NCBI GenBank assembly: GCA_030704615.1
Contig: CM060733.1
Location: 44,392,001 to 44,456,000 of the forward strand
DNA from: Takakia lepidozioides
Taxonomy: Eukaryota > Plantae > Bryophyta
Reading direction: 5' to 3'
Length of the DNA: 64,000 nt
The notes under the pieces: generated by a model
The model's input: the letters and a program-made list of their open reading frames with translations, nothing else
The model's database searches: none
Told to the model about the DNA's origin: nothing
Translations under genes and position numbers: made by a program
Shown here: positions 1-42,821 of the stretch, piece after piece
Layout: every line of letters begins with the position of its first letter
Position numbering within the stretch: position 1 is the first letter of the stretch

Positions 1-3000
1 ATATGTTTTGGACATGTGGAGGACCCCATGTCAAGAAAGATTGCCCAGAGAGTGGCAAAAGGGCCGGCACAAGCACAGCCTGCACAGTTGCAGTGTGGGC
101 ATTGTGGCAAGTATGGGCATGGAGATGCCCAGTGTTATGACTTGCACCCTGAGTTGCGGCAAGGCCAGTTCCAAGGGAACAATGGTGGCCGAGGGCAAGC
201 TGGAGCACCTCAGAGAGGACGAGATGGTCAGGCACGAGGTGTAAGATGAGGGCAAGCATGGTATGGCTAAGGATGTGGAGGTCAAGGCGTTGACCAAGGC
301 ATGGCCAACCGGCTTCAGCAACTAGAGCAAAGGCTTGCTGCCATGGCCACAGCTCAGGTGGTACCAGCTCCAGACCTGAGGGTCCACCTCATGTTCCTCC
401 TCATCAGCGTCATCCCTGACGGAGGAGACATGGGAGGCATGGGATTTATGTGTGGGGCAGCACTACCACTAGTGCAGGTGGAGTCTGCTGCCGTCACTCA
501 AGGAGCAGCACGATTTCCTGAGCCACGAGGTGCAGAGGTGGAGTTAGATCCATAGCGTGGGGAGGCAAGCCGTCAGGCTAGGTTGCCTTAATCATTCATC
601 TTGGGGGAGACAGTGTCGACGACATCCATGGCACCTAGTTCTCGTCCGACCGATACAGAGGCCATTATTGTGCCATTTGGAAGAGCTACACCGTGCAGCA
701 CTGACACCTGCTGCCAAGGCTAGTGCAGCCATGTGTTGTTGGGGGCAAGCCACCCTCTGTGTGTCAAGCCGCACTGTTCTCTGCAACCATGATTGCGACG
801 CCGGGGGTAAGACCAGCTGTAGTTTTCAGACTAGCAGCAACACTCTACGAGGGTGGGGATGTCACCTCATCTTCTGCGGAGTTAGTGGAGGGTGTAGTGG
901 CAGATGGATCCTCCGATTTGAGGGTCAACACTGCCACGGCTGTGCCATGGCAAGCTACACTACAGCTGCCAGGGTGACGGAGCTTGCCAGCTAGGCCAGC
1001 CTTTGAGCGCGCCATGGTGACACCTGGAGTTTCTTGTTAGACAACCAGGAGGGCATTTTCTCTTTGAGTGGAACCGGCAGGCAAAGGTACCGGCCACTGC
1101 GGGTCTTGTTGGACTCGGGAGCTCAGCCACTGATGTTTGGGCAGAGCTGCTATTGCAGGTTTGGGCCTCATGGAGGCGGATATGGAGCCTTGTCATTTCC
1201 AGATATAGACATCTCTGGGAGGATCAGAGCAGGCTCCGGGCATGACACGACGTGAGTTGGTCATTAGACTACAGCCGGATTATCCTATCGATGGCTCAGT
1301 AATGCGAGCCAAGGCCATTGTGACAGATGCAGTCTCTTATGATGTCATCGTTGGTGGGGCAATGTGTATATCCCATGGGCTTCACCCTGGATTTTTGGGA
1401 GGAGTCAACATCCTACAGGCCTGGATGGTAGTCAGGGAATGGTTGTCGTGTACAACTCCCTGTGACATTCATTGGGGGTGTTGCTGCTGCCACGAGGCGA
1501 TGCCCCCTAGCAGCCTTTACAGCTGCAGTTAGTTGGCCTCGAGAGTTGCTGGAGGGCAATGCCCATCAGAGGATGTGCCACCTCCAGCAAAGCAAGATGA
1601 CATGCATGGTACGCGGAGTTGCCTGACATGGTTGCTCACACTCCATTGTGGGGTACGAACAAGGATTTGCAGCAGGCTGCTGATAGACGGGTGCAACAAG
1701 CCTGGGTAGAGGCCTTTGTACCGTCAGGAGAGGAGGAGAGTGCGGTGATTGCACCAGGACCACCTCAGTTGTCGCCATTGGACACCACACCTCTTGTGTG
1801 GCAGTGCCCGGATGAAGACATATGTCTTTTGGACTTGTTTGGCGGGATTAGCATTGGATTGGCTGCAGTGCTGCAGGCAGGTGTACGAGTTCGACGTTAC
1901 CTATATGTGGAGAGGGATGAGACTGCACGATGCGTCTCACTGCGCCATGTTGCTCAGTTGGTGCAGCAGTACTACTCTGTTTGTTGTCAGTGTCTGCAGT
2001 TCGTGGATACAACAAGCCTTCCCAGCAGACAACTCCTTGTTGGGGACGCATGATTTGGAGCGGGTTGGCCCTATTCACTTAGTACTGGCAGGTTGGCCCT
2101 GCCAAGAGCTTTCATCAGCTGGGTATGGCAATGGGTTACAAGACTCAAGGTCACGCCTGTTTTGGGAGATGTTGAGGGTCATGCGCTATTTACAGCTTCA
2201 GCAGACAGACTCTCCGGCATATATCTTGGAGAATGTGCCATTGATGGGTGATTCTCGGGCCAAGGTGATGGCCAGTGTACATCAAGTGCGGTCTTGGCTT
2301 GGGTCAGCAGTGTTGCTGGATGCAGCTGTAGTGGGGTCACGGGCTCGTCGCCCACGACTATGGTGGACCAACTTGATGCCACCTGCATTGCTCAAGCGTG
2401 CATTTGATGGGGTGCAGCGGCCACCAAACCTGACGGTGGATAGCATTTTGGACATAGGGAGGCAGTCTCAGCGTGTGAGACATGATGACCGATCACCTTT
2501 GGCAGTGGTCAATAAGGTGGGCCCCCCACGAGCAGCATTGTCTACACTGCTCAGTTTTCCAGGATCTCATGCTTTCCGGGATGGTGGACCTGGCCTCTTA
2601 TGGGATAGCCAGTTGCAGCAGTTAGTGGAGCCCAATGCTGACGAGCACGAGCAGGCAATGGGTTTTACCACTGTGGGGCAAGCCATGGATCTCAATTGCT
2701 TTGACCTGGATTATCAGCTTAGCTATGGCTGAGCAACGCACAGTACGGAATACACTTCCCTTGAGGGTCTCCCTGCCTACCGAGACAGTATAGGCAGCGA
2801 GTGGGGGCGAACAGGTGAAGACCACGAGGTGCAGGCCGCATCCATGGCACACGTGGGAGGTGCTCGAGGTTCAGAAGGAGTTGGCAGCCAAGGCGGCGGT
2901 GATGGATGAGATTGGGGATTTTTCTCGGGTTGAGGAGGTCCTCAAGGATGGGATGATGGGGCAGGATGAGACATTGTCACTGACAGAGGAGGCAGTGGTC

Positions 3001-3176
3001 ACTGCTCAAGAGGTTGCAGCATAGCACCACGGGACGCGTCTTCTACCTCTAAGCCTGTTGGACTCAAGGTTGCAGTCACGGAGGACAACTGGGAGCCTGA
3101 TGTTTGACCTATAGTCACCGGAGGAGAAAGACGACGTATACGGCGGTTCTTGAGGGCTTACAGGAACTGCTTTGCA
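1..3176 (+). mobile_element. Degenerate Ty3/Gypsy retrotransposon fragment: gag zinc knuckle - aspartic protease - C5 DNA methyltransferase - pre-RT linker
   Basis: CX2CX4HX4C knuckle (CGHCGKYGHGDAQC, ~91-135); retropepsin motif LRVLLDSGAQPL (~1097-1135); MTase motifs at 1820-2700; ends in RRFLRAYRNCFA (~3140-3176), resembling the segment that precedes Gypsy RT. Many frameshifts and stops. The 5' end lies outside the window. Confidence 0.85.
1820..2700 (+). pseudogene. Retrotransposon-borne DNMT3-like C5 cytosine methyltransferase domain (frameshifted)
   Basis: Motif I LLDLFGGISIG and motif II YLYVERD in ORF 1619-2053. After a frameshift, ORF 1749-2732 has motif IV AGWPCQ, motif VI ILENV, motif VIII RARRPRLWWTN (cf. 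DNMT3 RARYFWGN) and motifs IX/X EHEQAMGF..VGQAMD, apparently with a short deletion between IX and X. Confidence 0.88.
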
Positions 3177-3224
3177 ATTTGAAAGTATGTCAACCTGAGA
3201 CCGGGCCCACAACCCTATATTTCT

Positions 3225-3445
3225 CATGTATTTCCATACATGTGTGACTATGCGTGAAGATGGGCATCGACTCAGGACTTAGAATTTTCTTGAAGTAGCA
3301 GCGCAAAATGCCTCAGTTGCAGAACTGCTGAAGTTCGACCCTGAGTCCTCCCCTTTTCGGAAGGAGCGATCGCACCACTGGGCTGTGTGCTACTATAATA
3401 CAAGAATCGCGAATTTAATGTTAGTTATACAGAAAAAGGGACTCT
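3225..3445 (+). repeat. ~220-bp dispersed direct repeat, second copy at ~7735-7950
   Basis: Both copies share gactatgcgtgaagatgggcatcgactcaggacttagaa...gaatttaatgttagttatac. In copy 1 a GC-rich ~140-bp block (3445-3583) separates this from the continuation cttctattacttgcc, which follows directly in copy 2. Confidence 0.8.
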
Positions 3446-4559: not shown

Positions 4560-5487
4560 TGGTATGTTGAGGATTTTAATTTGTTTCCTTTCAGTAATTC
4601 TAAGTAAGTTTCCACTTAGTTATTTTTTCTAAGAATGTCCAATTTATCATAAAAATTATGTTATCATATAAATTATAAAAATATTGTAACTATATTTGAA
4701 GTTCAAACCAGTGTTGTGCGAGTAGTGCATTTTTAAAGAACCCGCTGATTTCGGGTTCGGAATTGTTTGGGGGACCAAGTCCGGGTAGGTACCGGATTTT
4801 AATTAAATGATTAAGTAAATTATAAACAGGATATTAATTAGAAATGAAATTATTTCTGGCTTAAAAAACACCAAGTCCTACCAAGTGCCACACTTTATTT
4901 TAACAATTTTACGTATGTATATATTTGTATATTAAGCAATGTAGTTTGTTTGTTTTTGTTTTTGTTTTGTTTTGTTTGTCTTGACATTTTAAGAGAGAAG
5001 ACAATGATAATGACACGTACGACCAAGTAAGTTCAAAAAATGACTCTACTCACAAAACAAAACTTCAAATCACTTTTAGCTTGTGTTGTTGGTGATCAGT
5101 TTAATACACTATGTGTCTACATCTATCAATCCTAGTTGTGCGATTAAGTAATAGTTATATGGAAGACGTCTCATATCAAAGTGCGAGTTGAAGTTTAATA
5201 TGGGTCATGGTTTTGACAAGGCCATACCTTGTTTAATTACCCAATAAAAAGTACTTGAGCTAATTCATGACTAACCAGCTCGGACTTTGGACAACAATCA
5301 AACATCTTTAAACGTCTACAAAGTACTTGATATTCAATGGGAGTCCAAAACAAACCACCAAATTATTTTTAGCTCGTACTGTTGGTGAGTTTAATAACCG
5401 CGCGTGTGTAAACGTATATATCAATCTTGTTTGTCAAGTTAAGTGGTAATATGCAAGATGTCAGATTCTCAGCAGTGAAGGAGCTCG

Positions 5488-6975
5488 GTCGTGCATGCTC
5501 AACTCGAGAGAGATGAGCCGCACGACTGACGCTCTCGTGAAGATAAAATGGTTCAGGTGTCAAGCTAAACTTGACACCTGACTTAACACTTGAACTAAAT
5601 CCAAGTGTTAAATACAAATAACTAGCTTTTTTCTAGTTAGTTTCACACTGTGTTTATTTAACTTGACAGCTGTCGTGCGCATACGTATTGCTACACAACT
5701 ATATCGCTGTCTAAACTACACCACACATATATGGACAATAAAGTAGTCTGCCACAATCGCCCCCCTAGCTGGTGGATAGGTCCCTCTAACTCCAGATAGC
5801 TACAAGATGTAATAGCCATAGCCGTACTAAGTCCTCTATCACTGTCCCTATTGTACTCAAACTCTATAGACCAAGAGGCCAGGTACAAGAGTAGCCCCAT
5901 CGTTAGTCGCCGTCTTGCAATCTGTGAACTTGAGCCAGGATCTCGTGTGTTCAAGGTCTCCTAGTAGCTTGGCCTTGCATTTCTTGTTAGTCTTCCATGG
6001 TTGTATCCACTCCCACTATCCAATGCAATGCGGACATAACCAATCCCCATCAGGAACCATCTCAAGAGGTGGAGTCAAACATCCCATATGCTAACCTCTA
6101 GAGCATCGATCACACACCAGCATGGTGGTTGCCCCTCTAGCAAACCCACACAACATGCACCTCAAACTTGTAGGTACCACTGCCAGGTTTGGGTCAATAA
6201 TAGTTTGCCAACCCCATGAAAGCTCAAACTCGGCTCACATCCGTGGGGCGTGGAATCTGTGCAATGGCCTCTACCTTAGTCTGTTGTATCCCCAATCCTC
6301 TAGGACATATCATGTGACCCAGATACTCAATCTGGTTGTGGAAAAACTTACACTTCCCCGGATGTAACTTTAATCCGTGCGCCCTCAAGCGCTCAAATAC
6401 CACCTGAAGGTGTTTCTCATGCTCCTCCACCGTAACACTAAAGATGATGATGTCATCTATGTAGCACCGAGCAAACTCCACCCCTGCTAGAATCCTGTCC
6501 ATGACTCTCTGAAACTCTGCAGGAGCGTTCTTAAGCCCAAATGATAAGAACCGCCACTGGTATAAGCAATCCTTCCCGTGCTCATTGATCCCCCAGAATG
6601 CCGTCTTTTGCTTATCTGCCTCCTTGATCGGCAACTGGTGATATCCGGATCGTAAATCCAAAGTGTTAAAGACCTTGGCATGCCCAATGACATCAAAGAT
6701 CTCATCTGGTGTTGGCATGGCATACCTATCGGACTTGGTCTGACGATTTATAGGCCGGTAATCACCGCACATACGTCTCTCCGTCCATTGCCATAGACAT
6801 CCTTCTTGGCCGGCATCACTGTGGCTGAAGCATACACTCCCCCAAATAGCTCCACCAAACCAGCCTCCCAAAGGTCTTGAGTTCTCATCTGAATCAAGGA
6901 CCTCTTCATGTCACTGTATCTATAGGGTCTCCGAAAGATTGGCGTGTCAGTAGCCAATTCAATGCGATGTATTAT
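5488..6975 (-). mobile_element. Internally deleted Ty3/Gypsy copy: RT - (deletion) - PHD finger - PPT - partial terminal repeat; same family as 35123-42117
   Basis: RT motifs HRIELATDTPIFRRPYR, RMCGDYRPIN, LDLRSGYHQ, FGLKNAP and YIDDII (6975-6224); PHD remnant CMLCG..LVCDRC..HMGCLTPPL..GDWLCPHC (~6025-6170); PPT ctaggggggcg (5768-5758); terminal-repeat remnant with GACAGCTGTC at 5665-5674. Confidence 0.88.
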
Positions 6976-8353
6976 GCAAATACATGAGAAATATATGGAC
7001 ATGCATGTTCCCGATAAGCTCTCAATCTTTGTAATTTTGCTACTTCAAAAAAATTGTAAGTCCCTGCGAAAGTAGTTACATGGTGACTATACTTGGATGA
7101 CCATCTTCGAAAATAGTCATACAAGAGAAAATGTATGGTCAGGCATGAATACATGAGCACAAGTCTTGAATGGTATATATTATAATTATGTATGACAAGT
7201 ATATCATACTTCAAACCATGTATTTCCATGCAGTATCAATACTTTATCTCTATGCATAAAAATCATGAACTCACGGGTTCAATTTACAATGGATGAGATG
7301 GTGACTATGAATCTTCATATCTATACTAATATCATTCTTTTTATTTTCAATCGTTGCAAAGTCATGCATGATTTGAATGGGTTCATATAACAATGAATGA
7401 GATGATGAGTATGAATCTTAATATCTCTACTAATAGAATTATTTTATTCTTATTACTTGAAAAATAAAATTGCATGTGTCATACATGACATCTGGTATTA
7501 TTTTCATGCACAGTCACACATAAGAAATCAGTTGCATTGTCATACATACATACAGACATACGATGTGAAGTGTGTCCATGCAAGACTTCTGTCTGAAGAC
7601 AACTGATGTATTTCCATGCATGACCATTTATTTCTCATGTACGACTATGCAAGATGAGCATTTGAACTTGGAACTTTTTTGAAGTTGCAAAATCAAACAA
7701 AAACTCTAGTATTATTTGACACATGCATGACCATGTATTTCTCATGTATGACTATGCGTGAAGATGGGCATCGACTCAGGACTTAGAACTTTTTTGAAGT
7801 AGCAGCGCAATAAGCCTCAGTTGCAGAACTGTTCATGTTCGACCCTGAGACTTCCAGCGTTCAGGAGCGAGAGATCGCACCACTGGACTGCGTGCTGCTA
7901 CGTTGCTGATACCCTGAATTTAATGTTAGTTATACAAGAAAAGGAATCTTCTATTACTTGCCAATGAAGTTTCGTCAAATTTTCAAAAATCTAAGAATGT
8001 GCTCACATTAATTCATACATATGGACTTATAATTTTGTATGTCTGTTGGTTTGGAGTATGGATCAAAATTAAGTTCGGCAGTGGCATCTAGTTCTGCAAC
8101 GATCCACACATTCCACTACTTATGCGTGGTTTGCCAAGCCCGAGCCTACTTATAACTAAAATCTAGATCCGAAGCCACCTTGTTGTTGCCAAACCTCTAA
8201 AATTTGCCAATACTGTAGGTTTTCATGTCTGACTCTAAAGAATTTTGGCCACTCACCCGCTCAGCAAAAGTTCCCCTTTTGATGTGAGCACATCCCAGTC
8301 GATAGTGTCTTCATGGTAGACTCTAAGAAAATAGCAATATCCCCTTACAAACG

Positions 8354-9205
8354 CTACCTAACCAAACCCCCACATGTACCTGCCTCCCCCGAACATGTCA
8401 ACTTCAGAGGTTTGATTTCATTGTTCGAACGATTGGGGGTTTCTAATTTGCCGGGCTTGAAAATGGCCTCGAGAAGTTGTCGTGTGCTGCCAGGGTCACC
8501 ACGTCTGATGCGAGCACAGACTTCATTGATGTGTTTCTGGCGTCTGTAGAGGCAGAAGGTCCACAAGAAACAAAACACTGTCCCCAGACTCGCAATCCCA
8601 GCGAAAATCACCCCCCAAGCTAACTGTCTGAAGGAAGGTCCCGCAACCATGTACGCTGCGGCTAGAAAAGCGATGAGGGTGAAGATGGAAGCCGCCCAAA
8701 TGACCAGCATGTTTGTCTGCCACAGCTGTATTGAAGTGCTCCTTCTGCCGGGTACCCAGCTGACAAAAGACAATACCGCAGCAAGGGACATGAAGAGCCC
8801 CATAGCGTCAAAGATGTAGTAAATTTGGAAGGCGATGGTGTGCACGAGAACAGCTGCCCCCACCTCATCACCGCTCGATTGCAAACCACCAGGGGGTGCT
8901 ATGAGACCCGCAAATGTGACAGTCGCGATCAGAGCTGCCACCACCACCACTGTGGTGGATGCTGAGTTTAAACCCTGCTGGAACACTGCATCCTCCTCTA
9001 CCTGATCCATCCGAGCTTTGGTTTCCTTCTCTACGCCATGAATCCGAGCTTTTGCTTCATCGGCACCCTCCTCTACGTGATCAATCCGATGTTCGGCTAT
9101 GTCCAAACGCACTTCAACACCACTCATCTCCGTCTTGACCGCTTCCACTCCTGAATCATCTCTTAACCCCGATGAGGGTCGCTCGAGAGCTCCATTTCCC
9201 ACCAT
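8354..9205 (-). CDS. Stand-alone PGG-domain multi-pass membrane protein (paralog 1)
   Basis: VVVAALIATVTFAGLIAPPGG signature plus four hydrophobic segments; intronless ORF; likely ATG at 9205 (MVGNGALE); no ankyrin repeats seen. Confidence 0.8.
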   Translation of the reverse strand: MVGNGALERPSSGLRDDSGVEAVKTEMSGVEVRLDIAEHRIDHVEEGADEAKARIHGVEKETKARMDQVEEDAVFQQGLNSASTTVVVVAALIATVTFAGLIAPPGGLQSSGDEVGAAVLVHTIAFQIYYIFDAMGLFMSLAAVLSFVSWVPGRRSTSIQLWQTNMLVIWAASIFTLIAFLAAAYMVAGPSFRQLAWGVIFAGIASLGTVFCFLWTFCLYRRQKHINEVCARIRRGDPGSTRQLLEAIFKPGKLETPNRSNNEIKPLKLTCSGEAGTCGGLVR

Positions 9206-10481
9206 CGTTACACTGTGTTCCGAAACGAAGGTGAGAATCGGACAGAAAATCTGCCACTGCACTTCAGACTAGGCTCCCCCCTCGAGAGACGGTTAGCAGC
9301 AATCATGTGCAGCAGGGAGGCTGCACGAAGCCCTGGAAACACGATCATGAGGCGACCAGTCGCCATGAAATGCAACCAAGACCATTCTGGATGAAGCCTG
9401 CATTGAGCGCGGTGGCCCTGCCTTCACGGCCCCGTAGTACGAAACTGAGGAGTTACAAGTGGAGATGCATACCCCCGTCTTCAGCGTCCTTACGAAGGAA
9501 TATTGGCAGGGGGAAGGACAGACGCTCAAGGAGCATTGCAAGCACCCCAAAAAGTGATTGCGATCGCGAGGAGCTTTGTGTACGCCTGCCGCTCATCTGC
9601 GAGTGTAGTACAAGCCTAAAAGTCTCCTTTCAGCTCATCGATACCTGTGTATGATGGTATCAACACCAGCCTCATGTAATCCAGCTTTGCATTCTCCGCA
9701 GTGCAGCCCACCTTTAAAAGGTTGTCCTCGTGCGTCCAGTTCCCACTCCCTCGAGACCATCTCAGTGTGAAAAAGCTTTAAGAGCTTTGGGCCTTTCCCA
9801 CGTGAAATTGTTCTCGCTGTGATTAAGTTTCCCTCTTCCTCCTCCTGTGAGCGATCAGCTCCGTGCAGCAGTAGAAAAGTTGCTGATATTGCCCGTAACT
9901 GCACCTAAGATTTGCTGAGCTATGCTTCATCGGAGGTTTTGTCTTCATGGGACCCACCTCCTCCGACAGAAACATTGCAATTGGACACAATCGGCATCTC
10001 CCTAAAGTATACTATGAGAGAAGCATTAGATACTCAATAACAAATGGACAGATAAAAAGCCAACCTTGCTGATGTCCTTCGTGAGACGTCCAGATTGCGG
10101 TGGTTCACACTTTGACAACTTTTCGATTGGTCAGTCTTCCTGTGTAGACGCTGTTTGGATGGTGCACAGTGAAGTGGATCGCCAATGTGCCAGCCGAGCT
10201 TCCCCAGGGAACTTGGCATATCATTTAGAAGTGGTTTACACACAAATTGGAAGCACAGGTCGGGGTGGCATGAAAACATCCGATCATACACTTCGAGCTT
10301 TGTGGGCTTCAGACCTACTTCTTCCTTGGGTGCGATCATCAGAGACACCAGCAACATGTTTTATTACGTGAGTCGAAACTTTGTCCAATAGTAACTTGCG
10401 CAGTCTTCGGCAGGAGGTATCTTCCCTCGTTTTTTTGTCTACCAGGGCTCCTCCCTCATCTCGATAAAGCAATGTCCACTT

Positions 10482-13400
10482 TGTTAGAAGTCAGCTCAGA
10501 TTTAGTTAGCTAGGGTTCTGTTAGGGTTTTTTGACGGCTAGGGATAGTTCTACCAGAAGGTTCCAGCCACCAGAAGTTTCTAGAGAACTCATGTAGGATT
10601 TAAGGGAAAGGCTGAGGCAATGCCCAACACTTCTTCTAGCATTTTGGATGTGCTATCCTAGTAGATTGCAGAGAGAGGAGGAGGAGAAGTCCAACATCTA
10701 CTTTTGTAAGTTTTTCTTTTTGCAGTAAGGAGCATTCTTGTTAGGACTGACACTTCTTGTTAGTACTAACTCTTTGGTTGGTTTAGGCTGTCAATTTTTG
10801 TACTATTGCTTGTGCTAGAAGCTATCTGTCAATATCTCTAGGAGGTAGAGGACACGTCTAGTTTCCAACAGGTTATGGGCCCACAAGACGTTACAACTAC
10901 TTGGACAGTTGAGCCACTGAATGGCAACAACTATAAGAGTTGGATCTACACGATGCATCTCCTGCTCTCTTCAAAGAGCCTATAGTCAGTAGTGGCTAAA
11001 AAGCCTTCAGAGGATAACCTGAAGGAGGAGAGATGGATCCAAAAGAATGAGCTTGCAATGGCAGCTCTGGTCACAAACATGAGATCAAAGCTGGTAGTTT
11101 TGGTAAGGAATCTTACAATTGCTCATGAGGTCTGGCAGACCTTAAGTGAGGTGTATGAGGCAGATGCGATGGGGAAAGCATATGTCCTATGGAAACAACT
11201 CATGGACTTGAGAATGAGAGAAGGTGAGAGTGTAGCCATTCACATTGCCACTGTTAAAGCCATGTGTCTGGAGATAATTGATGCGGGAGAACCCATGACT
11301 GAATCACTTCAAATCATGACCTTGTTTGGCACCTTGCCAAAGAGTTATGACATGGTGGAAACCACATTGGCTACTCATGGTAAGAGTAGACTGAGTTGGA
11401 AGTATGTCACTTCACAACTCATCATGGAAGAAAGCAAGCTGACTAGGGGTAGCTCAAGTATGGACAATGCCCTGACGGCTACTTCCATCAAGAAAGATGG
11501 AGCATGTTTCCGATGCGGCAAATTTGGGCATTTCCAGAAGGACTGCAAGGTGAAGATTGACAAGTCCAAGAAGGACAAGTGGAGACCAAGGAAAGGGAAG
11601 TCTGTATATGCACATGTCGCTGACATGGGCAACGACAGTGAAGTTCACCTGTTTATGGCAGATGCAACTTACAGTCGTGATGAAGACTACCTGCTGACTA
11701 CTGAAGGAGAACACTATGGAGATGAGCGGTATTTGGACTCTGGAGCTACTAACCACATGTGTGGGAGGAAGGAGTTGTTTCACAACTTGAAATCCATTCA
11801 GCCTAGGAGCGTAAAGATGGGCAACAATACGTTTTCTGTAAGTACGATGATGGGAGAAATCCCTGTCAACTTTATCAGAAAAGAGAGTAAGGTTACCCGT
11901 TGTACCCTTCAGAAAGTCCTATATGTGCCAGACTTGGCAAAAAATCTGATCTCTGTTAGTACCTTGGATGAGCTTGGGTATGATGTCATTTTCAGAAACA
12001 ATGCTTGCAGCATCCAGAAGGGCAACGAGGAACTCTGCTATGGAGTGAAGGAGCAGAGACTCTACAAGCTTTTGAGTACATCTGGAACTCAGGAGGAGGC
12101 CAATGTTGGGGACACAATGGACACTGCACCATTGTGGCATAGAAGGTTGGGTCACTTGGGGACACAAGCGATCAAGGATCTTCAATAGTTGGGACTGAAT
12201 GTGGACTGGTCACATGAGCTACAGTTCTGTGAAGGATGTGCTAAAGGGAAACAACACAAGTCATCAATGCCCAAGGAATCTGCCACAAGAGCCAAGGAGA
12301 GGCTGGAGTTGATACACATAGATGTGTGTGGCCCCATGAAGACAACATCGCTGGGAGGATCTAGGTACTTTGTCACCTTCACTGATGACATGAGTAGAAA
12401 GACTTTCTTATATCCCTTGAGAAAGAAAGGTCAAGTGCTGCAGGTCTTTAAGCAATTTGTGCATGAAGTAGAAAACCAACTAGACCTCGAAGTCAAGGTT
12501 CTGAGGAGCGATGGTGGGGGGGAATTCCTAAATCAGGAATTCAAAAGGGCAGAGAGATTAAACAAAGCACTGGTTGAGAAGGCTAGATGTATGCTACAAA
12601 CCTTAGGCCTTGGACCAGAGTTTTGGGGAGAGGCGATCAGCACTGCCACCTATCTGAAAAATTTGAGTCCCATGCGAGCTTTGAAAGACATGACTCCAGA
12701 GGAGGCGTGGAGTGGGAAGAAGCCAAACCTGAAGCATCTAAGAGTTTTTGGTTGTGCTGCTTATGCATTGATACCTGACGAGCAAAGGAGCAAGTTGGAT
12801 GCCAAGTCAGAAAGATGTATCTTCATTGGGTATGATCTGGGATGCAAGGGGTACAAGGTCTACAATCCTAGAACCAAGAGGTCAATCAGGAGTAGAGATG
12901 TCATGTTTGATGAGGATAGTTTTGGGAAGGAGACAAAGCCCAAGGACCTGTCCGTTCCTGTGATAATCCCTGATGTGGGAGAAAAAAAAAGGGAACAACC
13001 AGTAGTAAAGGTTTACACTCGAAGGGAGAAGGTGGCGAAGAAACCAGAAGAGGATGAAGATTCTGAAGATTGGGATCCTATTGACAAGGATGGGGGGCCT
13101 AGAAGGTTAGGAAGGATCAACAAACCCTCAGAAAGGTTTGGAGCATGTGGCAGAAGGACTGACTGGTCTGACTATGGATGACATAGGGCAGATGGAAAGT
13201 TGTTTCCATGCCCTTGATGATGCAGAGGAGCCAGCCACCCTCAATGACGCTTTGGCAAGGGATGATGCCAATGAGTGGGAGGGAGCTGTACTAGAAGAGA
13301 TGAAATCTCTGAAAAAAAACTAGACTTGGGAGCTAGTAACACTGCATGGTGGTAGAAAGGCGGTAGATTGCAAGTGGGTTTTCAAAGTGAAAAGAGGACC

Positions 13401-15176
13401 CAACAATGAGATATTGAAGTACAAGGCCAGACTTGTGGCCAAAGGCTTCACACAGACTGCAGGGCTTGACTGCAATGAAACTTTTGCCCCGGTGGCAAAG
13501 TTCACCTCCATCCGATGTTTACTGGCATTGGCAGCAAAGCATGACTGGGAGATAGAACACATGGACGTGAAGACTGCATTCTTGAATGGGGATCTCCAGG
13601 AGGAGATCTACATGAAACAACCAGAAGGCTTCCAAGAAGGTGATAAGGTGTGTCGGCTCAAGAAATCGTTATATGGACTCAAACAGGCATGGAGGACATG
13701 GTATGAGAAGATCAATAGCTACTTGACAGGCCAAGGTTTTGTAAGGAGTACAGCTGATCAGAGCATTTACTACATGACATCAGGTGTCATGATAATAGCA
13801 CTCTATGTGGATGACCTGCTACTGATCAGCGACAACAAGGATACCATGCGCAGGCAGAAGCATGATTTGAGTGAAACCTTTGAGATGGTTGATCTTGGAG
13901 CCGTGAACTACCTACTTGGAATTCAGATTCTGAGGGACAGGAAGGCGAGAACTATAAAGTTGAGCCAAGAGAGGTATGTCAGGAATGTTGTTGCGAAGTT
14001 TGGTATGCAGGACTGCAAACCAGCACCAACACCATTGGAAACCGGCTGCAAGCTGAGTAAGGAAATGGAGCCAAAATCTCCAAGTGAGATTGAGGAAATG
14101 GCTAAGGTTCCATATCAGCAAGCCATGGGATCTCTGATGTATGCAATGATTGGCACCAGGCCAGACATTGCCTATGCAGTGGGAATGCTCAGTAAGTTCA
14201 TGCACAACCCAGGACCTCAGCATTGGAAAGCACTCAAGAGGGTGATTAGATATTTGAAAGGGACTGCGGATACATGTCTAACTTACAACAAGCAGGACAC
14301 TGGAGCATCACTAGAAGGATACAGTGATGCAGATTGGGCAGGAGACACAGATGAGCGGAGATCCATATCTGCCTACTGCTTTGTAATGAGTGGAGGTGCT
14401 GTGAGCTGGAGCAGCAAAAGACAGCACACCACTGCTCTATCCTCGACTGAGTCAGAGTATATGGCTTTGACTCATGCAACTAAAGAAGCCATTTGGATTT
14501 GAAGGCTTCTTGGTGAACTTGGCTTCAGTCAAGAACAGCCAACGAAAGTGCATGCTGATAACAGGAGCAGCATTGAGCTGAGCAAGAATCGTGTTCATCA
14601 TGCCCGGACCAAGCACATAGATATCAAACATCATTTCATTAGAGAAATGATTGGTTTGGAGATTGAGTTGGTTTTCTGTAGGACTGAGGACATGGCAGCT
14701 GATGCACTCACAAAGGCTCTTCCAAAGAAAAACATTCTAGATGCATGGAACTGATTGGGTTAAGCCTCAATCCTCGCTGAGTGGGAGTGTTAGAAGTCAG
14801 CTCAGATTTAGTTAGCTAGGGTTCTGTTAGGGTTTTTTGACGGCTAGGGATAGTTCTACCAGAAGGTTCCAGCCACCAGAAGTTTCTAGAGAACTCATGT
14901 AGGATTTAAGGGAAAGGCTGAGGCAATGCCCAACACTTCTTCTAGCATTTTGGATGTGCTATCCTAGTAGATTGCAGAGAGAGGAGGAGGAGAAGTCCAA
15001 CATCTACTTTTGTAAGTTTTTCTTTTTGCAGTAAGGAGCATTCTTGTTAGGACTGACACTTCTTGTTAGTACTAACTCTTTGGTTGGTTTAGGCTGTCAG
15101 TTTTTGTACTGTTGCTTGTGCTAGAAGCTATTTGTCAATATCTCTAGGAGGTAGAGGACACGTCTAGTTTCCAACA
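10482..15176 (+). mobile_element. Full-length but defective Ty1/Copia LTR retrotransposon
   Basis: 389-bp LTRs at 10482-10870 and 14788-15176 (TG...CA, 3 visible differences); 5-bp TSD CACTT; PBS ggttatgggccca; PPT gagtgggag. Domain order is gag (CFRCGKFGHFQKDC), PR (YLDSGA), INT (WHRRLGH; GKKP), RT (YVDD), RH (YSDADWAG). Confidence 0.97.
10875..14754 (+). pseudogene. Copia gag-pol polyprotein with stops, frameshift and integrase-core deletion
   Basis: ATG overlaps the PBS (MGPQDVTTTWTVEPLNGNNY). In-frame stops at ~10983, 12186, 13321 and 14500; frameshift at ~13140; the conserved segment between EFK and AERLN of integrase is missing. Confidence 0.9.
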
Positions 15177-34000: not shown

Positions 34001-36067
34001 TATTGGCCTTTGCTATCTCTTGTTGCAGAGTATTACATACACATACATACACAAATCAAACACTATACAAATAAAAATAAAAATATCATTACAATCGAAA
34101 ATATTTGTGCCAGCAAACTTACTGAATACATGCACTCAAGAAAGAGATCTCGACTAGGTGAGTATAAAATATCATGCACATTTGCCTCATTTTTTGGTAC
34201 ACATTTTAGAAGCAGTAACATAGAAGCATACTATGTACCCCAACTTATTTGGCCAGTTTGGGAAGGTCAGGCAACCCCACACTTGTGGGAAAGAGCCAAT
34301 AGCGTGGGGCCGCGGGAGGCTTGGAGAGGAACGAAGTGGATGGGAGGTAGACATGTGTACGGTTTTTTTTAAATTATGGTTGAGGCGGTGGCATAGAGAG
34401 GCGGTGGGCCCAAGAAGACACTAGAATACTCTAAAAGCGAGACACACTACAACATGAGAGGGGCCCAACAGTCAGCAGCAGGGGGAGCGGGAGGCACTTG
34501 AGACAACATAGACTGCGGTGGGGCCAACATATCCAAGAGAGCCGAGTCTGGGAACGTTGGGACAAGGTGTGCGGCGATTAGAGCGACTGTGGTATATAGG
34601 GCAGTGATTAGTGTAGCAATCAAAGCGTTGGGGTACCGACTAGGTGCTCATGGTGACAAGGGCTCACACACGTTCTATAAAAATCAACGCAGGTCCTGTA
34701 AAAATCAAGTCCATGAAAGCATTGGCTAGGGATAAAGCCATTGCAAATAGACGCGTAGGCAAAAAGATGCTTGAAGTAAGCGTCACTGTAGAAGGAGCAG
34801 GAGCAAACATCGATCCAGGTTCTCTTTCAAAAATGGAATGTTTTCTACGAACAGAATGCGTCTCAGGTGTTTGTTCACTAGAGAGAGGAGAGACTTTGTT
34901 TCATGCCCACCTACAAATGGTGCGTAAGGTTTATGCATCGAGTTTAATCATGCTCAACAAACAAATAAAAAACGTTTTAGGTTGGGACAATCCAAAATCT
35001 GCACCACCCATACCACATGTTCACTGCAAGCTATTAACGAGGCAAAGGCCTACACACATATATTGGACGATCGGAAACTGTCTGAAAGACATCGTCGAAC
35101 CCGATTTTCACTTTGTCTATGTTGTCGTGCGCATACATATCGCTACACAACTACATCGTTGTCCAAAACCACACAACACATGTGCACACCACACACTAGT
35201 ATACCACTAGTCCACCACTAGTCCAACCACTAGGCTACAACTAGTCAGTCACTAGGCTGCCACTATGCTGCCCACTATGGCAGTCACTAGTCCACACAAT
35301 AGATAAAGAAGAAGAATACAAGCACGAGCTCACAAATCTGAAGCATAAACTCATGCATATATAACCTCAGCACTCAAATACAAGTCAAGCCAAGTACACC
35401 CCACGCCATGGGGAATCCACACTACTGCGCCATAGCTAGGCGCGGTGAGGCTCAACTCGAGAAAGATGAGCCTTCCGCGCTTGCCGTGAAGATAACCACT
35501 CCAGGGGCTAAATCTGCCTTGACCCCTGGATTGACACTTGGGCCAATCCCAAATGTCAATATGTAAAAGCTAGCTATTTCCTAGCTAGTTTCACACTAGT
35601 GGTAAAATAACTTGACAGCTGTCGTGCGCATACATATCGCTACACAACTACATCGCTGTCCAAAACCACACAACACATGTGCACACCACACACTAGTATA
35701 CCACTAGTCCACCACTAGTCCAACCACTAGTCCAACCACTAGGCTACAACTAGTCAGTCACTAGGCTGCCACTATGCTGCCCACTATGGCAGTCACTAAT
35801 CCACACAATCGCCCCCCTAGCTGGTGCTTAGGTCCCTCTAAGTCCAGGTAGCCACAAGATGTGATAGTGACCATAGCCTCACTAAGTCCTCCACCACTAT
35901 CCCTACTACACTCAAACTCGATAGATCAAGAGGCCAGGTGCAAGAGTTGCCCCATCGTTAGTCGCCGTCTTGCAACCTGTGAACTTGAGCTTGGGATCTC
36001 ATGTATTGACTCCTATGAGCTTGGCCTCTCATGTCTTGTTAGCTGCCTCCAGTCATGTCCACTGCCA

Positions 36068-36313
36068 CTATCCCAAGCAGTGTGGACACAACCAATCTCC
36101 GTCAGGAACCTTCTCAAGAGGTGGTGTCAAGCATCCCATATGCCAACCCCTTGAGCATCGATCACACACCAGCATGGTGGCTGCCCCTTTGGCAGACCCA
36201 CAGAGCATGCACCTCAAACCTGCAGGTACCACTGCCAAGTTTGGGTCAACTCTGCCATCGACATTGGGAAGGTGACATGGCGCACAATTACGCACATGGT
36301 CCTTCCAAGTCAT
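36068..36313 (-). CDS. PHD finger at the C-terminus of the Gypsy pol (frameshifted from integrase)
   Basis: C4HC3 pattern CMLC...LVCDRCSRGWHMGCLTPPLEKVPDGDWLCPHC. Confidence 0.88.
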   Translation of the reverse strand: MTWKDHVRNCAPCHLPNVDGRVDPNLAVVPAGLRCMLCGSAKGAATMLVCDRCSRGWHMGCLTPPLEKVPDGDWLCPHCLG

Positions 36314-36343
36314 GCCATCCCGACCCTCTAAGATCAGGACCCC

Positions 36344-37680
36344 TTAGGGCAATACCTCTCGAACCCTCAGAATAACACGCCCTGCAGTAACATCCAGAGT
36401 CGTAGGAGCAGTCTGCTGCAAATAAACATAGTCACCAGGGCTAAACCTCCGAACCCCAGGACGATATCCTCCACCACGTATAGTGGCATACCTCAACGTA
36501 TCACGGTGCTGTGCAATGGCAAGGTTCTCAAAAGCCATGGGCATGACTTTCTTGAACAACTCTGCACGCTGATCACATGCACGTACCCACACGTCCGGAT
36601 CGTCAAGGTTAAGGACTTGAGCAGTGTCCCTACGAATGGCTGCAGGCAAATCCGGCTCTCGGCCAAAGAGAGGAAATATGGTGAGAAGGAGGCAAGTGAT
36701 GCTTGTTTGCTGAACCTGTAGCCCATGGCTAACCAAGGAACCTGAAGATCCCAATCTCCTAGGTGTCCCTTCTGCAAGCCATACTTGCGCAAACCCCTCT
36801 TCACCGTCTGAACAACTCTCTCTGCTAAGCCATCGGCCTCAGGATGATCCCGAGAAGTGGTGCGGTGGTCTATCAAGGCTTTATCACACAAAGCCTGAAA
36901 CTCCCCCAAGAACTCTCTCCCTTGGTCCGTGAGTACCTCAGCTAGAGCACCAAATCGGCTAAGCACTCGATCCAAGAATGCATACGCAACCCCCTCACTA
37001 GCCTTGTCAGGCAATGGAACCAACTCAATCCACTTGGAGAAGTGCTCCACCATCACCAACACATATCTGTGGTGGCGCATAGTCAGTGGCAACGGTCCTG
37101 CGAAGTCAAGACTCCACCTGTAGCCCAATCCCATGATTGGTAAAGGATGCAACTGTGGTGTAGGGGCGTTGAATGAAGCACGCACCCTGTCACACACCAT
37201 GCACCTAGCCACGAACTGTTGCACCTCTGTATGCATACCACGCCACCAATACTGCCCCTGCAGTAAACTGTGAGTGCGTCGCACTCCAAAATGCCCCAAC
37301 TCCTCATGGGCATGCCGCACTAACCGTGCACCGTGCACAATCCTCACCCGACCATCCTCCCACACTCGAAGTAGGTGTATCCCCTCCCACTTGAACCTCT
37401 TGGCTCGTTGCAGGATCCGATCCCTCTCCCTCGCAGTCACAGTGGCTGCCGTGTCTCCCGTGCGGAGGTAGTCCAACACAGCCGAATCCTCATGTATATC
37501 TCTGGCACCACCTGGCTCATCACTAGCCTCAGGGTCCTCAGACACTCCGTCTACAGTCATCCCTTTTGTAGGTCCAACCTGACCTCCCGATGCCAAGATA
37601 CACAAAAATGCAGATGCGTGCCATCCCGGCACCATCTCCTCGTCCGTCTCACCATGCCCCCGAGCTCCTGGCTCATGCAT
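36344..37680 (-). pseudogene. Gypsy DDE integrase (frameshifted)
   Basis: HHCC zinc finger (HEELGH...CMVC); WSLDFAGP; VLTDQGREF; HPEADGLAERVVQTVK; SPY/FGRE; continues in ORF 36344-36754. Confidence 0.92.
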
Positions 37681-38807
37681 GGATTGCGACTCAATCCATC
37701 CGCATCCCGATTGACCAAACGTGGTCGATGCACAACCTGAAAGTCATACTCCTGGAGTATGAATGCCCACCGTGCAAGCTTCCCCGTAAGCTTGTCTGAC
37801 TCCATCAACCACTTGAGTGGCTGGTGATCCGTGACAAGGGTGAAAAGATTGCCATATAGATAGCACTTGAAGTGTGCCACGGCCCACACTGCAGCTAAGC
37901 ACTCTCCCTCATATGAGCTGTACTTAGCCTCTGCAGTGTTGTTTGAGCGGCTAGCATAAGCCACTACGAACTCTCTTCCCTCATCATCCATCCTGACTGC
38001 CTGAGCTTCCGTAACCCCTTGGGTTACATTTATCAAGCGCCTCATGCGAGTGAAAGTCTCCCTCAAGCTCTCGGTCGGCTTCCGTTGGAACTCTTGCAAG
38101 CTCCGCAACTTCTCTGTCCTCATCCCTTGGTAGTTCCCTCTCAACTCTTCGAAGAACTCCACAACATGGTTGAAGGCAGGCACAGGTGCTAGTGCTGGTG
38201 CGGTAGTGGCTTGGGTGGACGTCGTAGCTACTGTACCACCAGTCCCACTAGTTCCAATGCTACTTGCTGAAGCTGCCGGTGTAGCGGCAGGTGTAGCCAC
38301 TGCCCTCGTGGCTCTAGTGCCCCTAGTGATGGAGACATAGTCGGGTGACCAGTACATCCTCCACTCCTCGATCTCAACCTCATACCCCCACCTAAACTCA
38401 TGGTAATCATCCATAGGCGGCCCCTCAAGGTGCTGAAACAGCCATTTCCATGCCATGAACGGCGTAAATAGTTGTGGATTGCGCATTTGCTGCAAATCAC
38501 ACCAACTATCAAAGTCTTGGATAAAATCATCCAACTCGATGGTGCCCACCGCCCCAGAGTACCTTCGTGGCCCCTTGGTAGCTCCATACATCTCCTTCAT
38601 TGTGTCCCACAACAATGGCAAAGAAACAACTTGCACCGCCGGTATGAGTCCTCCTGATTCACAATCCGAATCAGAACCTTCCGTGGAAGACACAGGAGGT
38701 GAAGGTGGCCTAAACCGCACACCTCGTCTCGTGTACCCACTAGTATCGCTAGTGCTCGAACCGGCACTGTCCCCAGCAACTAGTGGCACCTCCGTGTTGA
38801 CACTCAA
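37557..38807 (-). pseudogene. Gypsy gag N-terminus fused in-frame to RNase H C-terminal half (PR/RT region deleted)
   Basis: Gag-like region (FQRKPTESLRETFTRM) joins at ~37995 to VVAYASRS..YSSYEGECLAAVWAVAHFKCYLYG..VTDHQPL..ADGLSR. Confidence 0.85.
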
Positions 38808-39519
38808 CCGGTCATGAACATGTCCCTAACCCCCTCTCCACAAGGTAACCGGGTAGAGAACCTGTTGCGGCTTATGGTTTGGAATACTAAGTTCCTAACA
38901 TAGCCTACACATGTACCTGCATCCACCGCAAGCACTCCTATGGTTGGCTGGTCATCACCTCCAACCTCACCACAGGAGAAACAATGATGGTCTGGCTGGT
39001 CATCACCCCAGCCTCACCATCGACAGCATGCTCTAGGACTGGCCGGTGATCAAATCCGGACCAATCACCTATAAAAACAAGCGCCCACACAAAACTAGCA
39101 TGGCGCACAGTCAAGCATGCAGGTATGGAGGGGATCCAAACACAAGAAATCAGAACGACAACTCCCCCACACCAAAAACAACTCCACGGTGTTGCTCCTG
39201 CAAAGACACCCCAGCCCAAACCCGGACTGACTCTTGCCTCCACCTGCGGAAAGGTCTTGGCCTAATGAGAGGGTGGAAACTACGAAGAAGAGAAGCTAAA
39301 GCAATGCCTAACCCCAGCATGCCCTCATCCCAACACTCTTCCTCTCCTCTCTTCCCTCACTTGCATGACCATGGGAATATCATGAAGATACTCCTCAAAC
39401 CGCCCTCCACGAGCTTCAAATTTCGGCCTTCAAGACCACATACCAGTCCTTATGCAATCCACCAGTGCCTCCACAAGTCAGCACAGGCCATCCACAGGTC
39501 AACACGGGCCACCACAGAC

Positions 39520-40240
39520 CAGCACAAGCCCACACAGCTCACAGGCCACAGCTTGTCACAGCCCTACACAGGTCACAGGGTCACAGCCCCAAAGGCCACA
39601 TGTCACAGCCTGTCACACCCCATCACAACCCCAAAGGCCACAGGCACAGCCTGTCACAGCCCTACAAAGGTCACAGGGTCACAGCCGCAAATGCCACAGC
39701 CTATCACAGCCCCTCACAGCCCCATAGGCCACAGGGCACAACCTGTCACAGCCCGACACAGGTCACAGGGGTCATAGCCCCAAAGGCCACAGCCCGTCAC
39801 AGCCCGTCACAGCCCCACAGGGCACATGGCACAGCCTGTCACAGCCCGCCACAGCCTGTCACATCCCGTCACAGCCCCACAGGCCATAGGGCACAGCCCC
39901 TCATAGCCCGTCACAGCCCCACAGGCCACAGGGCACAGCCTATCACAGCCCCTCACAGCCCCACAGGGCACAGGGCACAGCCTGTCACAGCTCGCCACAG
40001 CCTATCACAGCTTGCCACAGCCTGTCACAGCCCGTCACAGCCCCACATGCCACAGGGCACAGCCTGTCACAGCCCCAAAGGCCACTGGGCACAGCCTGTC
40101 ACAGCCCCTCACAGCCCATCACAACTCGCCACAGCCTGACACAGCCCATCACAGCCGGCCACCGGCACAGCCCGACACAGCCCGTCACAGCCCCTCACAG
40201 CCCCCAAGGCCACAGGGACAGCCCGTCACAGCCCTATCCA
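39520..40240. repeat. Minisatellite of 9-11-bp (gt)cacagcc(c) units inside the Gypsy leader
   Basis: Dozens of cacagcc / gtcacagcc / ggcacagcc units in a higher-order pattern. Confidence 0.9.
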
Positions 40241-40559
40241 TGGCCGCTCTGGCAGTTTAGCCATTTCTCCAAGGGGTTTAGCCACGCCAAGCTAGGGTTT
40301 GTGTCTCTTGGACTCTAGGCTTCTTTCCACCGAGCTATGGCGGCTGTGAGGAAATCAGCAAGGTATTCTTGCTCTTTTGGCTCCCACACACTACCATAAT
40401 AGCCCTAAGCCATGAGGTGGTTGCCACAAACCAAGCCTTCTTTCTCACTTAGCCTTCCCAAACACGCCACTAAACTCAATGGCAAACAACCAAGCCCTGC
40501 TGGTTCCCAGCCCTTGTGAGCACTCATTCAAGCACTCTCATTGGCCATAGCATCTGTCT

Positions 40560-41460
40560 TAGAGCCTATTCCAGCCCTCTACACCTGTTGCTTCAAGAGT
40601 TGCGCTCCCTTCAAGCTTGAAGTTGAAACCCCAACTCACATAGGCCCTACAAGTGCTTTTCTTTCACTCCAAGTGGAAACCAGCCCTAGACCTTCCGTTC
40701 TAGCTCTCTAAGGCTTGAAAATAAGAGCCTCAATGGGCTGAAGGCATGCTCCACACATGCCCCACTCTCACCATAAGAGAATCAGCTCATTTGCTTCATT
40801 TCTTGCACCCACAAACCTGAAAATACAAGCTTCAGCAGGCTGAAAGCATGCTCCACCTGCCCTACAGGGAAACCAGCCCCTTCCTTCCTTTCTTGCACTC
40901 CCACACCTGAAAGTGCAAGCCTTCACCAGGCTGATAACATGCTCCACACATGCATTGCCCTCGCATAAGGGAAGTCAGCCCTTCCCTCTTCCTTGCTTGC
41001 CCTCCAAGCTTGAAGATGGAAGCTTCAATGAGCTGAATACATGCTCCACACATGCAACCTCTTCACACAAGAGATATCAGCCCCCTATCTTGGCTCCTTG
41101 GCTCATTGATGCTCTCTAAGACAAGACTAAGCACTCCACAGCCCTTGCCAAGCTCCTGAAACCATAAGGCTTATATTTCCAGCCACAAGACACTCCTCTT
41201 GTGGTGCAAGAACTTTTCTTCCAAGCTCTGAAACCCTAGGTGCACATTCCATGGCCTTGCCGCACCTCTCAGCTCCTGTTCCAGCCCCGCTTTTGCCATG
41301 GCAAGAGCCCTCATATCGCTAGAGTTTCAAATTGAAACCCCCAACTCAACATAGCCACAAATGCATTGGCTTGCATACAAGAGAAATCAGCCATCTCTTT
41401 TCACTCATACCTCCTTATGAGCTTGAAGTTGGAGCTCCCGATAACTGTGACCTACATTTA
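40560..41460. repeat. Degenerate ~100-130-bp tandem repeats in the Gypsy leader
   Basis: Recurring catgctccacacatgc, aagagaaatcagcc and cttgaagttggaa motifs. Confidence 0.6.
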
Positions 41461-42821
41461 ACACCCTCACAGCTCCACATTGCTGCAACTCCTTAACTTG
41501 GCCTGCAGCTGAAGAAGACGACCACCAGTTCACCCACTCGAGACCAGCATCTCCCCCGCTTCACACTAGAAGCCCAAACTTGCCATAGCGTTGAGCTATG
41601 CAACGCCGCTCTTCAACATAGGCTACCCGCCTCTCTATCCATTGCAAACCTGCAACCTGTTCGCCTTTGCACTCTATCCACTTTGGATAGGCTCATGCAC
41701 GGATCCCTGCACTCTAGGCTGAACCGCTTTTCATGAAAACACAAGTACTACAAAGCAACTCGAACCTGGCACTCACAGACTCGGGCTCATCTTTCTCGAG
41801 TGATAAAGAAGAAGAATACAAGCACGAGCTCACAAATCTGAAGCATAAACTCATGCATATATAACCTCATCACTCAAATACAAGTCAAGCCAAGTGCACC
41901 CCACGCCATGGGGAATCCACACTACGGCGCCATAGCTAGGCGCGGTGAGGCTCAACTTGAGAAAGATGAGCCTTCCGCGCTTGCCGTGAAGATAACCACT
42001 CCAGGGCCTAAATCTGCCTTGACCCCTGGATTGACACTTGGGCCAATCCCAAATGTCAATATGTAAAAGCTAGCTATTTCCTAGCTAGTTTCACACTAGT
42101 GGTAAAATAACTTGACAATGTGAATGTCAACGACGTCGACGAAATGCAAGATGGAATGGATGAGTATACAAAGTTTCGGTGCCTGCTTCGGAAAAACAAA
42201 GGTTTGTCTCTCACATAAAAATGTTTTGGAGAGAGCACGAATGTCGTGCAGATACAAGATGAGAGGGCAATTGAATTCAACACTGTCTCGTGTTCTCTTC
42301 CATATGATGAAGTCTGGTCAGTATTTTCCTTCTGTCAATTGGGTAATATTGGTTAAAAGCAGCGGAATGGATTTGGAAAGAGCAGCTTCCATCTGGAAAT
42401 GTATGATGAGACTGCATGAAATTGAGATGGTAGATGTTGCTCGAGTGTTTTAGTCTTTGCGCTATGTGATAGATTGAGAAATTTGGCATCTATTGAGATT
42501 GGTAATGAACTGGAATCTGAGCCTTGTAATACCGGATCGAATGATTCAACCGTTTGCGATTTGGCAAAAGGGATAGAAGCCTCATCGATCAGCAGGTGCC
42601 TTTTATTCCGCTGCGATGCAAACGATCTGCTAGAAATCGCCATGTTTTTTTTATTTTTATGTAATAAAGTGTCAATCTTGTATATAAAGTGAGAACTTGG
42701 CCAACTTGGCCAATACGATATTAAAAGTGTGTCATAATAAGGTGACAAAAAGTTCAGACCATCATCTAATTAAAAAATCTCTTACTATGCTATGCTTATA
42801 AATTTGTACTCTACAAGGTTA

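Follow-up and report, generated by a model that had tools for sequence, protein, structure and literature searches.

A Ty3/Gypsy retrotransposon family of bryophytes with a DNMT3-like methyltransferase domain ahead of a conserved, probably leaky stop codon

KnitGypsy-Dnmt3 of the alga Klebsormidium nitens is described as a retrotransposon with DIRS-like repeats that carries a DNMT3-like DNA methyltransferase (DNMT) domain, under purifying selection, in one Pol frame with reverse transcriptase (RT) and RNase H (RH); another such element, SymbioDIRS-Dnmt3, performed de novo CG methylation in yeast (PMC5890265). Marchantia is mentioned neither in the main text of that study (de Mendoza et al., 2018) nor in its supplement text. 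Later papers, including bioRxiv 10.64898/2026.05.21.726589, give 'streptophytes' in their accessible text and leave bryophytes unnamed, and a 2019 review states that land plants 'such as tracheophytes' have no transposons that encode DNA methylases (PMC6338049). The accessible text of several bryophyte, land-plant and algal methylation papers does not mention such elements, and the literature searched, with subscription journals, Repbase, supplementary figures and preprint supplements lying outside the search, held no bryophyte report of them. Here we describe a family of DNMT-bearing retrotransposons starting from a decayed copy in 64,000 nucleotides of Takakia lepidozioides (GCA_030704615.1, contig CM060733.1, positions 44,392,001 to 44,456,000, forward strand; hereafter the window), whose coding region occupies the + strand from base 1 to 3177.

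We are almost certain of the identity and anatomy of this family: it is a high-copy Ty3/Gypsy family with a first reading frame encoding Gag, a protease (PR) and a DNMT3-like domain. By its predicted reading frames, the domain closes this Gag-PR-DNMT frame, ahead of a second frame with RT, RH, integrase (IN) and a PHD finger, and is not part of pol. We judged copies from public sequencing runs and from metagenome loci (numbered with an L). The gag-PR-DNMT-RT-RH-IN(-PHD) order recurs in 35 of the 80 metagenome loci analysed, the other 45 (L036-L080) being weak partial matches, and 235 cluster representatives match at E 1e-30 or better. Named land-plant proteins make up 20 of the 69 longer homologues (16 Marchantia, 2 Calypogeia, 2 Sphagnum), and Marchantia polymorpha has annotated full-length Gag-PR-DNMT proteins such as Mp_4g09160, from a cluster of 18. 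In run X1, summed contig depth was 2e5-1e6 over the element and 65-92 over the nearby single-copy stretch 4741-5451, a thousands-fold contrast that we read as abundance only, since summed contig depth is not copy number. Because of this contrast, and because the DNMT bins (3.1-5.8e5) were level with gag and RT, the depth points to a family of very high abundance in which most copies have the domain.

The same observations address the idea that a host DNMT3 retrogene or a contaminant had landed by chance in a Gypsy relic here. A sister copy within the window does lack the DNMT domain, as that idea would predict, but one internal deletion has taken its PR and RT as well, and the position of the domain is shared by liverwort proteins, peat-moss proteins and many loci, at family-level depth. 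We consider a local insertion ruled out on these grounds, with a negligible residual probability, and the domain is a fixed part of the Gypsy family, as a sequence-only reading of the window had proposed. Among viral contigs we found 15 loci, all of them weak partial matches (E 2e-9 or worse); since these and the 45 metagenome matches are weak and partial, no close phage or prokaryotic donor was seen.

Motifs and predicted fold point to a C5 DNA methyltransferase of the DNMT3 type, in agreement with the sequence-only reading. The closest solved relatives of the window domain are DNMT3A/B (E 6e-7). The intact domain of L001 was modelled with high confidence (pLDDT 95.3, pTM 0.93), and all 30 Foldseek hits to this model among the matches listed were DNMT3A/B/C (best TM 0.73/0.83). 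The G-x-G, PCQ, EN and RxR residues are at least 90% conserved in a 10-row alignment. The ratio of nonsynonymous to synonymous substitution rates (dN/dS) is 0.11-0.20 for the domain in six between-family pairs, five of which are near synonymous saturation, and 0.36-0.76 for the linker behind it, which shows a signature of purifying selection on the domain between families. Among close decayed copies of the L002 type, dN/dS is 0.50-1.01 (three pairs). A non-catalytic role, for example the binding of DNA or RNA while complementary DNA (cDNA) is made, ends are joined or the palindromic junction described below is protected, would fit the inactivity of the Klebsormidium domain in yeast (PMC5890265), the replacement of ENV by EHV in the K. 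nitens protein KFL_009030040 and the unusual ends that accompany this lineage. The conservation of the key residues and the full two-lobed DNMT3 fold predicted for L001 argue against it, and we regard it as improbable.

Loci that look intact consist of two frames split by one in-frame stop (1369 and 1047 codons in L019). A homologous stop is present in 17 of 24 loci (TAG in 12, TAA in 5), with CAR as the next codon in 16 of the 17; of the other seven loci, five have frameshifts in the linker and the remaining two are truncated. Behind the stop, L001, L019, L020 and L025 have the full CARYYA context, which is known to favour read-through (PMC4132726). In all four runs, other copies carry a one-base insertion directly behind the TAG of the window copy (3022-3024). 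Database proteins have the same boundary: within the 49-tip DNMT clade that includes the window, 39 of 43 end no more than 183 residues past the DNMT domain with no RT, RH or IN after it, and the four exceptions are NCBI Marchantia gene models. Among 37 neighbouring tips, KFL_009030040 included, 15 continue into RT in a single protein. Because of this difference between the clade and its neighbours, the stop looks like a derived state that places the enzyme on the Gag side.

We think it probable that this stop is read through. The competing view is that it is a true terminator, with Pol made from an RNA that is spliced or has a start of its own and the DNMT still co-expressed with Gag. Several features lean that way and count against read-through: the five TAA stops, two tandem stops in L026, and a CAA CCC context in the L002 type that falls short of the full CARYYA. 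The 17 stop-bearing loci, moreover, represent only about four lineages. Yet unbroken copies of four lineages keep the frame across the stop, and CAR follows it, so that we give true termination only a slim chance. A third layout is seen in L035 (440-8752), where an in-frame TAG lies before the DNMT domain, giving a zinc-knuckle frame, the stop, and then DNMT-RT-RH-IN-PHD. Since the TAG is ahead of the domain in this locus, the putative stop and the domain have swapped places between lineages.

The window copy itself is a fossil whose value lies in its family. Its features were assigned by a scripted motif search, Pfam domain calls and colinearity in tblastn with Marchantia Mp_4g09160 (P0002):

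1..700, + strand: gag, 3' part, including two zinc knuckles at 9-44 and 94-135 (colinear with P0002 residues 303-490); the element begins before the window.
981..1560, + strand: aspartic protease region, broken by frame changes (tblastn, motif search).
1106-1126, + strand: protease motif LLDSGAQ (DSG; motif search).
1820..2720, + strand: DNMT3-like C5 cytosine methyltransferase domain (Pfam, structure relatives, tblastn, alignment, motif search).
1829-1852, + strand, frame 2: motif I, LDLFGGIS (this and the next six by motif search).
1898-1918, + strand, frame 2: motif II.
2088-2105, + strand, frame 3: motif IV, AGWPCQ.
2223-2237, + strand, frame 3: motif VI, ILENV.
2337-2366, + strand, frame 3: motif VIII.
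2628-2666, + strand, frame 3: motif IX.
2676-2696, + strand, frame 3: motif X, GQAMDLN.
3022-3024, + strand: TAG at the family's conserved stop, on the border between Gag-PR-DNMT and RT-RH-IN-PHD (homologous to the in-frame TAG/TAA of the 17 loci).
3025..3177, + strand: start of the second frame (pre-RT linker), up to the inversion breakpoint (match to the P0005 pre-RT region, judged by reading).
6197..6966, - strand: RT of the same element, inverted (RVT_1, E 1.1e-31).
6025..6197, - strand: PHD finger at the integrase C terminus (85% identical to 35804-36249).
5497..5780, - strand: 3' repeats, comprising B1, a portion of A2 and, at 5665-5674, the palindromic junction GACAGCTGTC (self-comparison of the window, ends analysis).

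P0002 is colinear with the window over 9-2952, through zinc knuckles, protease and methyltransferase, with no intron-sized gap, and identity is 66% across the C-terminal DNMT part. PF00145 matches 1749-2729 (E 4.6e-10, 39.9 bits, cut-off 22), and motifs I, II, IV, VI, VIII, IX and X follow in order within 1829-2696, intronless and with the catalytic PCQ, ENV and RxR retained. The intron-free, colinear motifs of the sequence-only reading are thereby confirmed, including by the DNA_methylase profile that it had proposed as a check; neither of the outcomes that it named as refuting was observed. Pfam found no match when the protease, gag and N-terminal (motif I-II) pieces of the broken copy were searched separately; the protease-homologous region of L019 gives a weak Asp_protease_2 match (E 2e-4). 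The copy was also rightly taken to be dead: it has several stops and frame changes, one of the latter between motifs II and IV (~1975-2010) and one directly past motif X (~2700), and a deletion of 16 codons between motifs IX and X (2666 to 2676) that leaves the cores of both. Two points of the earlier description need revision. The domain does lie between protease and pre-RT linker, but upstream of the conserved stop, at the end of the Gag-PR frame and not in pol; and the proposed extent of 1000..3176 holds the domain but not the whole element, which has gag from base 1 and its RT, PHD finger and 3' repeats inverted at 6966-5497.

In this inverted piece, RH and the integrase core are deleted between RT and PHD finger. 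The - strand piece picks up about 14 codons beyond the end of the + strand piece, contigs connecting 3177 with 6967, on opposite strands, occur in three runs, and one contig of a fourth run spans both pieces; because of this codon continuity and these joins, the copy was likely split by an inversion. Copies of another repeat (3225-3439, 6980-7061 and 7615-7944) adjoin both breakpoints in opposite orientation and may have mediated it.

The ends of the family are best preserved in the sister element, which is internally deleted:

35123..42117, - strand: sister element, lacking PR, DNMT and RT (self-comparison, Pfam, ends analysis).
42117-41801, - strand: repeat A1.
35809-35620, - strand: repeat B1.
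35617-35302, - strand: repeat A2.
35300-35123, - strand: repeat B2.

Its order is A1, gag, RH, IN, PHD, B1, A2, B2, that is, split direct repeats around the open reading frames (ORFs), A1-ORFs-B1-A2-B2. Pfam left its broken PHD stretch unmatched, and its long 5' leader holds a CACAGC-rich short tandem repeat array (39500-40220). The complete arrangement is found in this copy and in L018, and the inverted piece of the DNMT copy retains B1-A2 only. Both complete copies have TG...CA ends and a 4-bp target duplication (ACAT in the sister copy); together with the rve integrase, these rule out a DIRS/Ngaro tyrosine-recombinase element. Many copies share 42117 as their first base, with flanks that vary (30 and 17 contigs; agreement 0.44 and 0.41). 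The junction of B1 and A2 is GACAGCTGTC in both window copies, L002, L018 and L025, and L035 has the same palindrome. In the sister copy a purine tract lies before B1, and the A2/B2 junction of L018 reads CA-AT-TG, as in a circle with two long terminal repeats (LTRs). This arrangement is most simply read as the outcome of integrating an end-joined copy that had been cut within its LTR.

No tRNA-type primer site was evident by eye after A1; the one ARAGORN call, of undetermined type, lies elsewhere in the window. With one mismatch, the leader that follows A1 is complementary to a stretch inside A over 16 bases in the window copy, 20 in L018 and 15 in L002, while 2000 shuffles of the window leader gave at most 11 bases. 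Because the complementarity of the window copy exceeds the shuffle range, it suggests, by analogy with the prediction for Tcn1 elements, that reverse transcription is self-primed.

On balance we lean, by a small margin, towards an explanation in which intact members pack the DNMT into their particles at capsid-like amounts and methylate their own new DNA; for cDNA self-methylation as the main role of the enzyme we put the chances at even. In this proposal, TAG-CAR would halt most ribosomes to give Gag-PR-DNMT while a minority read through to give Pol, and, because the DNMT precedes a conserved and likely leaky stop, intact relatives would make the enzyme in bulk with the capsid protein. The protease would release the DNMT in the particle, and the element's own RNA would self-prime reverse transcription. 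The DNMT would then methylate the cDNA, so that new copies would arrive pre-marked and be shielded from host recognition or kept at low expression. Finally, integrase would cut an end-joined (circular) copy at the CA-GC-TG palindrome within one LTR and insert it, producing A1-ORFs-B1-A2-B2.

Several observations weigh against this explanation, in addition to the near-saturated between-family ratios and the relaxed ratios among close copies given above. The Klebsormidium domain produced no methylation in yeast, a result its authors call inconclusive (PMC5890265). In L023 the leader complementarity is 10 bases, within the shuffle range of a null drawn from the window copy only. The sister copy has intact ends and 98% A-repeat identity despite lacking PR, DNMT and RT, and a DNMT gene in cis is therefore dispensable. 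CpG depletion is also not specific to the family: the observed/expected ratio for CG at codon junctions is 0.10-0.61 in the family, 0.18 in a Copia element without DNMT and 0.29 in a host exon, so this test does not separate self-methylation from host methylation.

The enzyme could instead be active mainly in the nucleus, as a copy-number brake or a chromatin modifier acting on integrated copies, the insertion site or competing repeats, with the PHD finger steering integration. Gag-level output would far exceed the enzyme need of one cDNA, a PHD finger does follow the integrase, and slowed transposition and effects on insertion-site chromatin are both among the suggestions of de Mendoza et al. 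(PMC5890265). The domain has no chromatin-reading module of its own, though, and its fusion to Gag-PR would point to the particle. We consider a mainly nuclear role unlikely, though it is the most serious competitor of particle-borne self-methylation.

Phylogenetic trees of the DNMT and RT domains were midpoint-rooted and built without host DNMT3 or a bacterial outgroup. The window falls in a 19-tip DNMT clade with Marchantia and Calypogeia (0.999), inside the 49-tip clade (0.974). The K. nitens and moss elements belong to the same broad group and share domain order, with support at the joining node of 0.0-0.93 (DNMT) and 0.53 (RT); KFL_009030040 is 42% identical to the window domain, in keeping with the kinship to Klebsormidium elements suggested by the sequence-only reading. 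Persistence from charophytes, an older origin and horizontal transfer may each be compatible with this weakly supported link. The other half of the DNMT tree has a second architecture, RT-RH-DNMT-IN-PHD. Two named pol proteins of chlorophytes have this order, with the DNMT placed after RNase H and before integrase: P0174 (Scenedesmus sp.), which belongs to this half of the tree, and P0342 (Monoraphidium neglectum). For chlorophytes we found no report of it in the accessible text of the literature searched. Some algal-type elements have an amino-methyltransferase-like tail with a DPFAGTG-like motif past the PHD finger (L035:8237-8752, L031:5463-5942, and the C termini of P0046 and P0053). This tail accompanies RT-RH-DNMT-IN-PHD in 17 proteins, with weak database matches (E 0.03-0.8), and such elements may carry two methyltransferases, one of the DNMT3 type, and be different from the published EpiLTRs. 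A broader scenario, which we hold tentatively and think rather less likely than not to be correct as a whole, is an ancient green-lineage Ty3 clade with an active DNMT3, extending from chlorophytes through to the mosses and liverworts and, owing to its split LTRs, recovered poorly by LTR finders. In this scenario a leaky stop placed behind the enzyme in the bryophyte branch would make it a capsid-level cargo that methylates self-primed cDNA circles before integration through the mid-LTR palindrome.

The host is likely a moss, judging from one gene. An intron-containing lipin gene in the window has its best matches among Sphagnum proteins (83%, checked exon by exon), and a quick 23-row tree groups it with Sphagnum, Physcomitrium and Ceratodon (SH-aLRT 99), nested inside neither group, which bears out the earlier assignment to a land plant. 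This lipin (PAH) gene, at 19976-30882 on the - strand, contains a very long open stretch of 1597 codons (24543-29336). A young Ty1/Copia element (10482-15176) has LTRs 99.2% identical over 389 bases and in-frame stops in pol; it is flanked by two PGG-domain-type membrane protein genes on the - strand (8354-9268 and 17104-17832), 86% identical over about 500 bases. The window also holds a satellite-like degenerate array with units of about 60-110 bases (42900-47000) and, at 62191-63624, inverted repeat arms of about 100 bases, 87% complementary and about 1.2 kb apart, possibly a DNA transposon.

If the broader scenario given above is right, part of bryophyte methylomes may be written by transposon-encoded enzymes, given thousands of moss copies and unbroken Marchantia frames. 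De Mendoza et al. (2018) left open why a retrotransposon carries the enzyme that usually silences it, working with algae that lack good genetics (PMC5890265); the Gag-PR-DNMT genes of Marchantia polymorpha bring this question into a model plant for which mutants and methylomes exist; transposable elements are derepressed in Mpmet mutants. The conserved stop predicts that the enzyme is made at capsid stoichiometry, and an unusual route of integration is suggested by the split LTR with its cut at a palindrome. DNMT3 copies that go unlabelled could moreover distort bryophyte methyltransferase counts and mutant studies.

Among described systems that carry C5 methyltransferases, SymbioDIRS-Dnmt3, SymbioLINE-Dnmt and the EpiLTRs belong to different element classes (PMC5890265; bioRxiv 10.64898/2026.05.21.726589); the EpiLTR DNMTs are sister to DNMT4, are accompanied by DAM and a chromodomain, and are called distinct from Gypsy-DNMT3 by that preprint. 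The Physcomitrium host DNMT3 (Yaari et al., 2019, PMC6453930) resembles the family domain in its DNMT3 type and unrearranged motif order. The host-type K. nitens DNMT3 gene is described as multi-exonic and clustering with bryophyte and animal sequences, whereas the family domain is borne by an element and has no introns. Self-priming that uses no tRNA site is predicted here as it is for the Tcn1/Tf1-Sushi chromoviruses (Neumann et al., 2019, PMC6317226, whose main text contains neither 'methyltransferase' nor 'Marchantia'). Chromoviruses such as Tcn1 and Chlamyvir have a chromodomain past the integrase, and the window family has a PHD finger instead, as do Chlamydomonas Gypsy elements such as REM1; scans of the intact second frame of L019 and of other proteins matched no chromodomain.

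The closest likeness is to KnitGypsy-Dnmt3, which is likewise described as a Gypsy element with Gypsy domains, an intronless, unrearranged DNMT3-like domain under purifying selection and DIRS-like split repeats. The window family has the same hallmarks: an intronless, unrearranged domain with its key residues, a PR-RT-RH-DDE integrase order, split repeats and a DNMT dN/dS of 0.11-0.20 between families, against the Ka/Ks below 0.2 that marks the kind. KFL_009030040 has the corresponding PR-DNMT-RT-RH-IN order, though with EHV where the window-type domain has ENV. The family differs from KnitGypsy-Dnmt3, as the latter is described, in its land-plant host, in a DNMT domain that ends the Gag-PR frame at a conserved stop and in a far higher copy number, and the two are not supported sister groups in the DNMT or RT trees. 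An uninterrupted frame shared by DNMT, RT and RNase H is not the rule here, given the stop in 17 of 24 loci and the 39 of 43 clade proteins that end past the DNMT. Because an in-frame stop parts the methyltransferase from RT and RNase H, the family is a variant and not a plain member of KnitGypsy-Dnmt3: it is a bryophyte branch of the Gypsy-DNMT3 elements with a derived, likely leaky stop.

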